NCBI RefSeq assembly: GCF_003334315.1
Contig: NZ_QOWR01000057.1
Direction: 5' to 3' (one strand)
Length of the DNA: 29,365 nt
DNA from: Escherichia coli
Lineage (GTDB): Bacteria > Pseudomonadota > Gammaproteobacteria > Enterobacterales > Enterobacteriaceae
Shown: one piece after another, positions 28,401 to 29,365 of the stretch
Layout: every line of letters starts with the position of its first letter
Numbering within the stretch: position 1 is the stretch's first letter
Program-made: the position numbers

Positions 28401-29365
28401 TATTATCGAAGGAAACTTTAGGAGACTCTCATTTTTTTGAATCGCAGCAAAAATGCTCCCGACAGGATGTATATAATTTTGTTCATAGTATATAGTCCTT
28501 AAATAATGAATAACCAACCTGTTTTTTATATTGATCAAATTCGTCATTTTTTCTGGGCGAAACACAGAAGTGACATCCATTCCAATAAAATCTTTATTTA
28601 TACCTCTTATCCGAATTTCACTACCATAAAGATTATTAATTATTACTTTATATTTAACATTGTCCTGCAGATATGTATCAAAACTAAGTGCTGGCGCTCC
28701 TGGCTTTGAGGCATCATAGTTAATGTTAGACATATAGGCAATCATATAATTAAAATTTGATTCTGCTATTTCATCGCAGTCACATTGACCCGTTGATATA
28801 AAGAAAGTGAGTGCCGCCATGGTAGACTCAAGCCTTTCTTTAAAAGAGTCAAAAGCCAGACTTTTAATATTTAAATCACCATAATTACTCTGTATTAAGT
28901 TTGTAGAAAACATCTCCCACCTCATATTGTTAACAAAATTATTATCTCATTTAAATCTAAGTCATTTACAATATAAGTTTAAGAGCGACGCCACAGGATG
29001 AACTATCAAAAATAGCTCATCATGATTAGCAAAACTTAACCATTTTAAAATAAATAAACAATTAAAGAAAAAAGATCACTTATTTATAGCAATAGATCGT
29101 CAAAGGCAGCTTTTTGTTACAGGTGGTTTGAATGAATGTAGCAACGAAATACAGAATTTCAGGTGATGCTGCCAACTTACTGATTTAGTGTATGATGGTG
29201 TTTTTGAGGTGCTCCAGTGGCTTCTGTTTCTATCAGCTGTCCCTCCTGTTCAGCTACTGACGGGGTGGTGCGTAACGGCAAAAGCACTGCCGGACATCAG
29301 CGCTATCTCTGCTCTCACTGCCGTAAAACATGGCAACTGCAGTTCACTTACACCGCTTCTCAACC

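Follow-up and report, generated by a model that had tools for sequence, protein, structure and literature searches.

The stretch of Escherichia coli DNA analysed here, 29,365 bp long and referred to below as the window, begins and ends within copies of the insertion sequence IS1, and this raises the question of whether the two copies belong together with the intervening 29 kb. The pair most probably represents two unrelated IS1 events approximately 29 kb apart on the native chromosome, and not a functional unit. According to the explanation that we favour, with a probability of approximately 0.85, the right copy is an ordinary IS1A/IS1B-like insertion in the ydjO-cedA spacer, the left copy is a different, IS1X4-like element in fadK, and the contig halts in both of them.

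The right edge of the window is formed by the IRL-proximal 204 nt of an IS1 (29162..29365, plus strand), which is cut by the contig end. Its inverted repeat (29162-29184, plus strand) begins with GGTGATGCTGCCAACTTACTGAT and shows no difference from the termini of complete IS1 copies. A consensus scan revealed an insA promoter-like site, CTGCCA-16-TATGAT, at 29169-29196 on the plus strand, and insA itself starts with GTG and is visible for 49 codons (29217-29363, plus strand). The insA fragment scored 42.8 bits against profile NF050000 (IS1/IS1595 zinc-binding domain; cut-off 28), and the source's own gene call carried PF03811 Zn_ribbon_InsA. Two features of the IS1 family, a terminal repeat of approximately 23 bp and the N-terminal zinc ribbon of InsA, were thus present; the insB' frame with its programmed -1 frameshift, the right inverted repeat and the total length of approximately 768 bp would lie past the point at which the contig stops. 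Moreover, all 204 nt matched full 768-bp copies in the strains EC931, 2017-19-1CC and 2018-11-3CC, which are annotated as IS1A family in EC931 and as IS1B family in the other two. The sequence-only reading had placed a left end of IS1 at about 29162 with insA reading rightward, which was confirmed by the repeat, by the full-length match and by the profile score. The element resembles IS1A and IS1B, the 768-bp insertion sequences of Enterobacteriaceae, in its terminal repeat, promoter and InsA zinc-ribbon N-terminus and also in its AT-rich target and the expected 8/9-bp duplication; no difference was seen in the visible part, which comprises only the first 27% of the right element.

The left edge carries the IRL-proximal 77 nt of a second IS1 with an IS1X4-like end (1..77, minus strand), which is likewise interrupted where the contig stops. 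When reverse-complemented, these 77 nt read GGTAATGGTGCCAACTTACTG... and aligned over their full length with full IS1 copies. They contain the inverted repeat (55-77, minus strand), the insA promoter region and the first seven insA codons, which run from position 22 down to 2 on the minus strand and are translated as VASISIS. The terminal inverted repeat and the insA start place this element in the IS1 family as well, and the earlier description of a left-edge copy reading leftward therefore held. The left end was identical at 77 of 77 positions to the IS1 copy of strain GmM062, a complete 768-bp element annotated in RefSeq as IS1X4, and its junction with fadK was identical at 120 of 120 positions. 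This likeness applies to the 77 nt compared; the IS1 copies at the fadK site are mosaic elsewhere, so the remainder of the left element may not be IS1X4-like, and the flanking haplotype of the window differs from that of GmM062 by 38 mismatches in 2.5 kb.

Alignment of the two IS1 ends revealed differences at 8 of 77 positions (4, 8, 55, 64, 65, 67, 70 and 76), in agreement with the approximate number that had been read from the sequence together with the difference between ASISIS and ASVSIS at the N-terminus of InsA. Because both insA-proximal ends (IRL) face the segment, the copies are in inverted orientation. The view that they are different isoforms acquired independently was borne out by their distribution: the left copy is IS1X4-like and its chromosomal junction occurs in at least 17 complete genomes, and the right copy is IS1A/B-like and its junction was seen in no complete genome.

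The window corresponds to the whole of contig QOWR01000057.1 of the draft assembly GCA_003334315.1, to which both of its halves are identical in sequence. Therefore, both window edges are assembly breaks inside a repeat, IS1. The IS1 stretch at the left end of the contig is exactly 77 nt long, and the right end lies exactly 77 nt past T29288, which corresponds to IS1 position 127 and is polymorphic (T/C) among IS1 copies. From these two distances we infer that the contig was built by de Bruijn assembly with k=77. The assembler would have halted in both IS1 copies, unable to cross a multi-copy repeat. Consequently, the bracketing of 29 kb described by the sequence-only reading stands insofar as there are two inverted, non-identical copies, but it is a property of short-read contig ends and not a special property of the segment. 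Two rare amino-acid variants are encoded in the window, D248N in YniA and A420V in SelO. The SelO variant was found in 7 blocks, the longest contigs of which were 20-50 kb, so a similar contig is carried by approximately 7 related assemblies.

The interior of the window was found to be native E. coli core chromosome. Positions 78-29161 (29,084 nt) aligned without gaps to the human commensal isolate E. coli 2018-11-3CC and differed from it by 9 SNPs, and at least 80% of positions 78-25000 was covered in one place in 5,043 of 5,426 complete E. coli genomes. According to the annotation of relatives, the gene order is 'fadK-ppsA-ppsR-aroH-hemP-selO-ydiV-nlpC-btuDEC-ihfA-pheTS-rplT-rpmI-infC-thrS, followed by arpB-yniD-ydiY-pfkB-ghoS-yniA-yniB-hxpB-ydjM-tcyP-ydjO. 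The claim that the segment is not a dispensable composite transposon was thus well founded, since it is collinear core chromosome. The arpB/espL1 locus (18875-20603) was read as two open frames of 157 and 414 aa and is a frameshifted pseudogene in the annotation of relatives. Two Rfam matches exceeded the gathering score: the Phe leader (14933-15057, minus strand), which is located upstream of pheST, and, between btuC and ihfA, the sRNA family STnc540 (10934-11092, minus strand).

The number of IS1 copies had been considered typical of Shigella or of IS-rich E. coli. The second possibility agreed with the data, as the nearest relatives proved rich in IS1; the close relative 2017.17.03CC, for example, contained at least 39 IS1-matching places. 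A Shigella source was ruled out by the distance of only 9 SNPs to a commensal E. coli. The lineage is IS1-rich, though not unusual: of the 5,426 complete E. coli genomes, 5,294 contained IS1, and the median number of places was 10.

The surroundings of the right IS1 were then compared with genomes in which the site is empty. The ydjO gene is intact (28131..28913, minus strand), and many other E. coli strains share its 260-aa product without any change. Its promoter, ATGACT-16-AATAAT (28938..28965, minus strand; consensus scan), is intact as well, and a ydjO promoter with the same hexamers has been listed as constitutive and H-NS-marked (PMC3946193). Since ydjO is encoded on the minus strand, the right IS1, previously described as lying downstream of this gene, in fact lies 248 bp upstream of it and approximately 196 bp upstream of the -35 element of its promoter. 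With the empty site as the reference, the element is located approximately 40 bp downstream of the cedA stop codon; the insertion point lies just past a hairpin at the 3' end of cedA, and both ydjO and cedA stay uninterrupted. The 8 bp adjoining the element, GAATTTCA (29154..29161), were recognized by comparison with the empty site and are presumed to be one copy of the target-site duplication. The empty site reads ...CAGAATTTCAGGTCATG..., or in a longer form ...ACAGAATTTCAGGTCATGTAACTCCCGGCAAAACCGGGAGG..., and was found in ATCC 8739, in the closest complete genome and in relatives sharing the YniA variant. The region from ydjO to the sequence upstream of katE contains 32.8% G+C, as compared with 48.7% in the whole window; IS1 is known to prefer AT-rich targets and to make 8/9-bp duplications (PMC5009759).

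The right junction was not found in one piece in any of the 5,426 complete E. coli genomes. Exact-match scans of species-representative genomes and metagenome contigs with the 42-nt junction gave no match, and no IS1 adjoined ydjO among the places listed for the YdjO protein, an allele that occurs in approximately 11,000 blocks. Because the junction was absent from all of these collections and the site was empty in the closest relatives, it may be concluded that the right insertion is recent and private to a small clone. In biological terms, one more private insertion of IS1 is thereby recorded, in a spacer that is AT-rich and carries an H-NS mark. It is conceivable, judging from the position of the element, that IS1 upstream of an H-NS-marked promoter alters the silencing of ydjO.

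Two other strains, AH62 and AH65, carried a complete IS1 (2571-3338 of the retrieved AH62 locus) at the 8-bp target used by the right IS1 but oriented the other way round, with GAATTTCA on both sides, followed by cedA and katE. By analogy, this arrangement is probably what the unseen side of the right IS1 looks like. The same nucleotide position in the ydjO-cedA spacer has therefore been hit at least two times independently, in the source clone and in AH62/AH65. In the complete genomes, 12 distinct IS1 positions were mapped from ydjO to the katE upstream region. All 12 copies were 768 bp long, and at least 10 of them had clean duplications of 8-9 bp; the copy of strain 2EC1 was without a clean duplication. 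In E. coli O9:H10 Res13-Lact-PEB20-37-A, the order was chbA-chbR, IS1, the 5' part of ydjO, cedA and katE (1-2604 of the locus), so that the IS1 in ydjO is a rearrangement junction and not a simple insertion; the rearrangement was probably an inversion. Regional enrichment of IS1 at ydjO-cedA was also considered, and the claim was dropped because a crude uniform expectation gave approximately 18 copies for 1.4 kb and 5,426 genomes, similar to the number observed; it was based on approximately 12 places per genome, as 62,880 chromosomal IS1 places had been counted in 5,294 genomes. At this locus, only the coincidence of exact sites is notable, not the regional density of IS1.

At the left edge, IS1 truncates fadK (ydiD), of which a 3' remnant of 381 nt is left (78..458, plus strand); relatives annotate it as an 'AMP-binding enzyme, missing N-terminus'. 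An intact fadK is present in 2018-11-3CC. The fadK target adjoining the left IS1, GAGGCTGGC (78..86, plus strand), is duplicated on both sides of the element wherever the insertion is a simple one. The fadK junction, with IS1 in the same orientation, was spanned in one piece by at least 17 complete E. coli genomes, eight of which were examined in detail. Among the eight, RM14721 and EC20-4B-2 carried simple insertions with GAGGCTGGC, a 9-bp duplication, on both sides. The other six kept the fadK-side junction without the duplication and had six different outer end points: ydiF contained three of them and ydiP two, and the one in ydiO was that of GmM062. The left end sequence of the window was shared only by GmM062 among the eight and differed by 5-8 nt from the ends of the seven others. 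The bodies of the IS1 copies inserted here were up to 65 of 768 nt apart and looked mosaic, and the fadK-ppsA flanking haplotypes differed. The truncated YdiO-IS1 fusion protein of GmM062 was encoded on 22 public contigs, every one of which ended in IS1. For the simple insertion, the FadK-IS1 open frame extends 81 nt into IS1 and would be truncated where a contig stops.

A fixed IRL side combined with six outer ends is the classical nested-deletion pattern known from IS1-promoted one-sided deletions and from recombination between direct IS1 copies. This likeness was read in other genomes, whereas the outer flank of the source genome lies beyond the contig. The two closest complete genomes had yet other IS1 arrangements. 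In one of them, IS1B replaces ydiF'-ydiP with no duplication (2220-2987 of the locus); in the other, a simple IS1A insertion with the duplication GGTATTTTG lies in fadK (7150-7917), 81 bp from the site used in the window. It follows that the ydi-fadK region turns over quickly, and the left IS1 is a further example of its instability.

These results allow the explanations of the pair to be weighed. IS1-flanked composite transposons are of the Tn9 type, with direct repeats, or of the Tn1681 type, with inverted repeats, so an inverted pair of IS1 copies is able to form such an element, and the window resembles both types in having one IS1 on either side of a segment, here in inverted orientation. 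It differs from them in that the segment is native core chromosome in place, contains essential genes, shows no sign of movement as a unit and is flanked by isoforms inserted at different times. A composite transposon would consist of accessory DNA in a non-native place, with a duplication flanking the whole unit, whereas here the DNA is core chromosome at its own locus. Gene order and both junctions (fadK and the ydjO-cedA spacer) are native, and thousands of genomes without these two IS1 show the same segment in collinear order. Because the flanks are native, transposition of the two IS1 and the 29 kb as a mobile unit is excluded for practical purposes. An inversion of the 29-kb interval by homologous recombination between the two IS1, by which thrS-infC-rpmI-rplT-pheST-ihfA would have been flipped relative to their neighbours, was regarded as highly improbable. 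The inverted orientation of the copies permits it, and IS-bounded inversions do occur, as illustrated by the IS1-bounded rearrangement at ydjO in Res13-Lact-PEB20-37-A. Recombination inside inverted IS copies keeps the junctions between IS and segment and leaves no short-read signal (PMC5009759), and the contig is silent on such an event because its inner junctions would be unchanged. Thus, an IS-bounded contig should be taken with caution: it marks where a short-read assembler halted, and an inversion between such IS copies stays invisible. Nothing positive pointed to an inversion, however. If the left copy is IS1X4-like throughout, it is approximately 92% identical to the right copy, with the longest perfect runs of 71-90 bp, which makes the pair a poor recombination substrate. 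RecA-dependent recombination is strongly lowered at such identity with short perfect runs, and it is usually costly for translation genes with high expression to be turned against the direction of replication. In addition, the absence of the right IS1 from all complete genomes and from the closest relatives leaves little time for a second event.

Two further explanations concern the elements individually, of which 204 nt and 77 nt are visible. One or both could be solitary end fragments, at which a short-read assembly would stop just as it does at complete copies. This was considered very unlikely, since every IS1 recovered at both loci in complete genomes was 768 bp long, including the GmM062 copy with the identical end. 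Alternatively, the right IS1 could be the edge of a larger IS1-mediated rearrangement, for instance an inversion junction, a deletion on its far side or the attachment of a foreign segment. Such a junction was seen for one of the 12 neighbouring copies, the copy of 2EC1 lacks a clean duplication, and IS1 at fadK is often accompanied by one-sided deletions (six of the eight genomes). However, simple insertions with duplications account for at least 10 of these 12, and the copies of AH62 and AH65 at the same target are simple insertions followed by cedA and katE. A larger rearrangement at the right edge was therefore judged to be unlikely.

In the favoured explanation of two unrelated insertions, IS1 would have transposed into the AT-rich ydjO-cedA spacer of a commensal-type chromosome at the target GAATTTCA, and another, IS1X4-like IS1 would occupy the recurrently used site in fadK, truncating this gene. 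We infer that both copies are of full length (768 bp) and that the right one arose by simple insertion, with a duplication of 8/9 bp, and is followed by cedA; the left one may be accompanied by a one-sided deletion on its outer side. Beyond the right IS1 (approximately 768 bp) would come GAATTTCA(G)GTCATGTAACTCC and then cedA. The left outer junction would be ydiF, ydiO, ydiP or the 5' part of fadK, then GGTAATGACTCC. Both elements behave as textbook IS1.

The mildly interesting points are that IS1 recurs at the exact site in either target and that nested deletions are found at fadK, and both fit the long-known behaviour of IS1. The target GAATTTCA was occupied in both orientations (source clone as compared with AH62/AH65), and at GAGGCTGGC in fadK, equally oriented IS1 copies whose bodies are up to 8% apart were seen on at least three flanking haplotypes. 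IS1 might accordingly return to both positions with nucleotide precision and not have hit them at random, a tentative reading that we regard as rather doubtful. If the events were independent, population genomes could be used to map site-specific targeting of IS1 by DNA structure or by a host factor (e.g., H-NS- or IHF-bound DNA), and if the reading is true, the expression of ydjO could also be altered by the element upstream of its H-NS-marked promoter. The recurrent exact sites are thus a small, checkable lead on target choice by IS1.

The chromosomal bases that follow the right insertion point, GGTCATG, matched the IS1 terminus GGTGATG (29162-29168) at 6 of 7 positions, and due to this likeness the BLAST match of the flank ran 7 nt into the right IS1. 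The likeness may be a matter of chance or may mean that IS1 uses targets resembling its own ends; according to an old report, IS1 target sites are said to do so.
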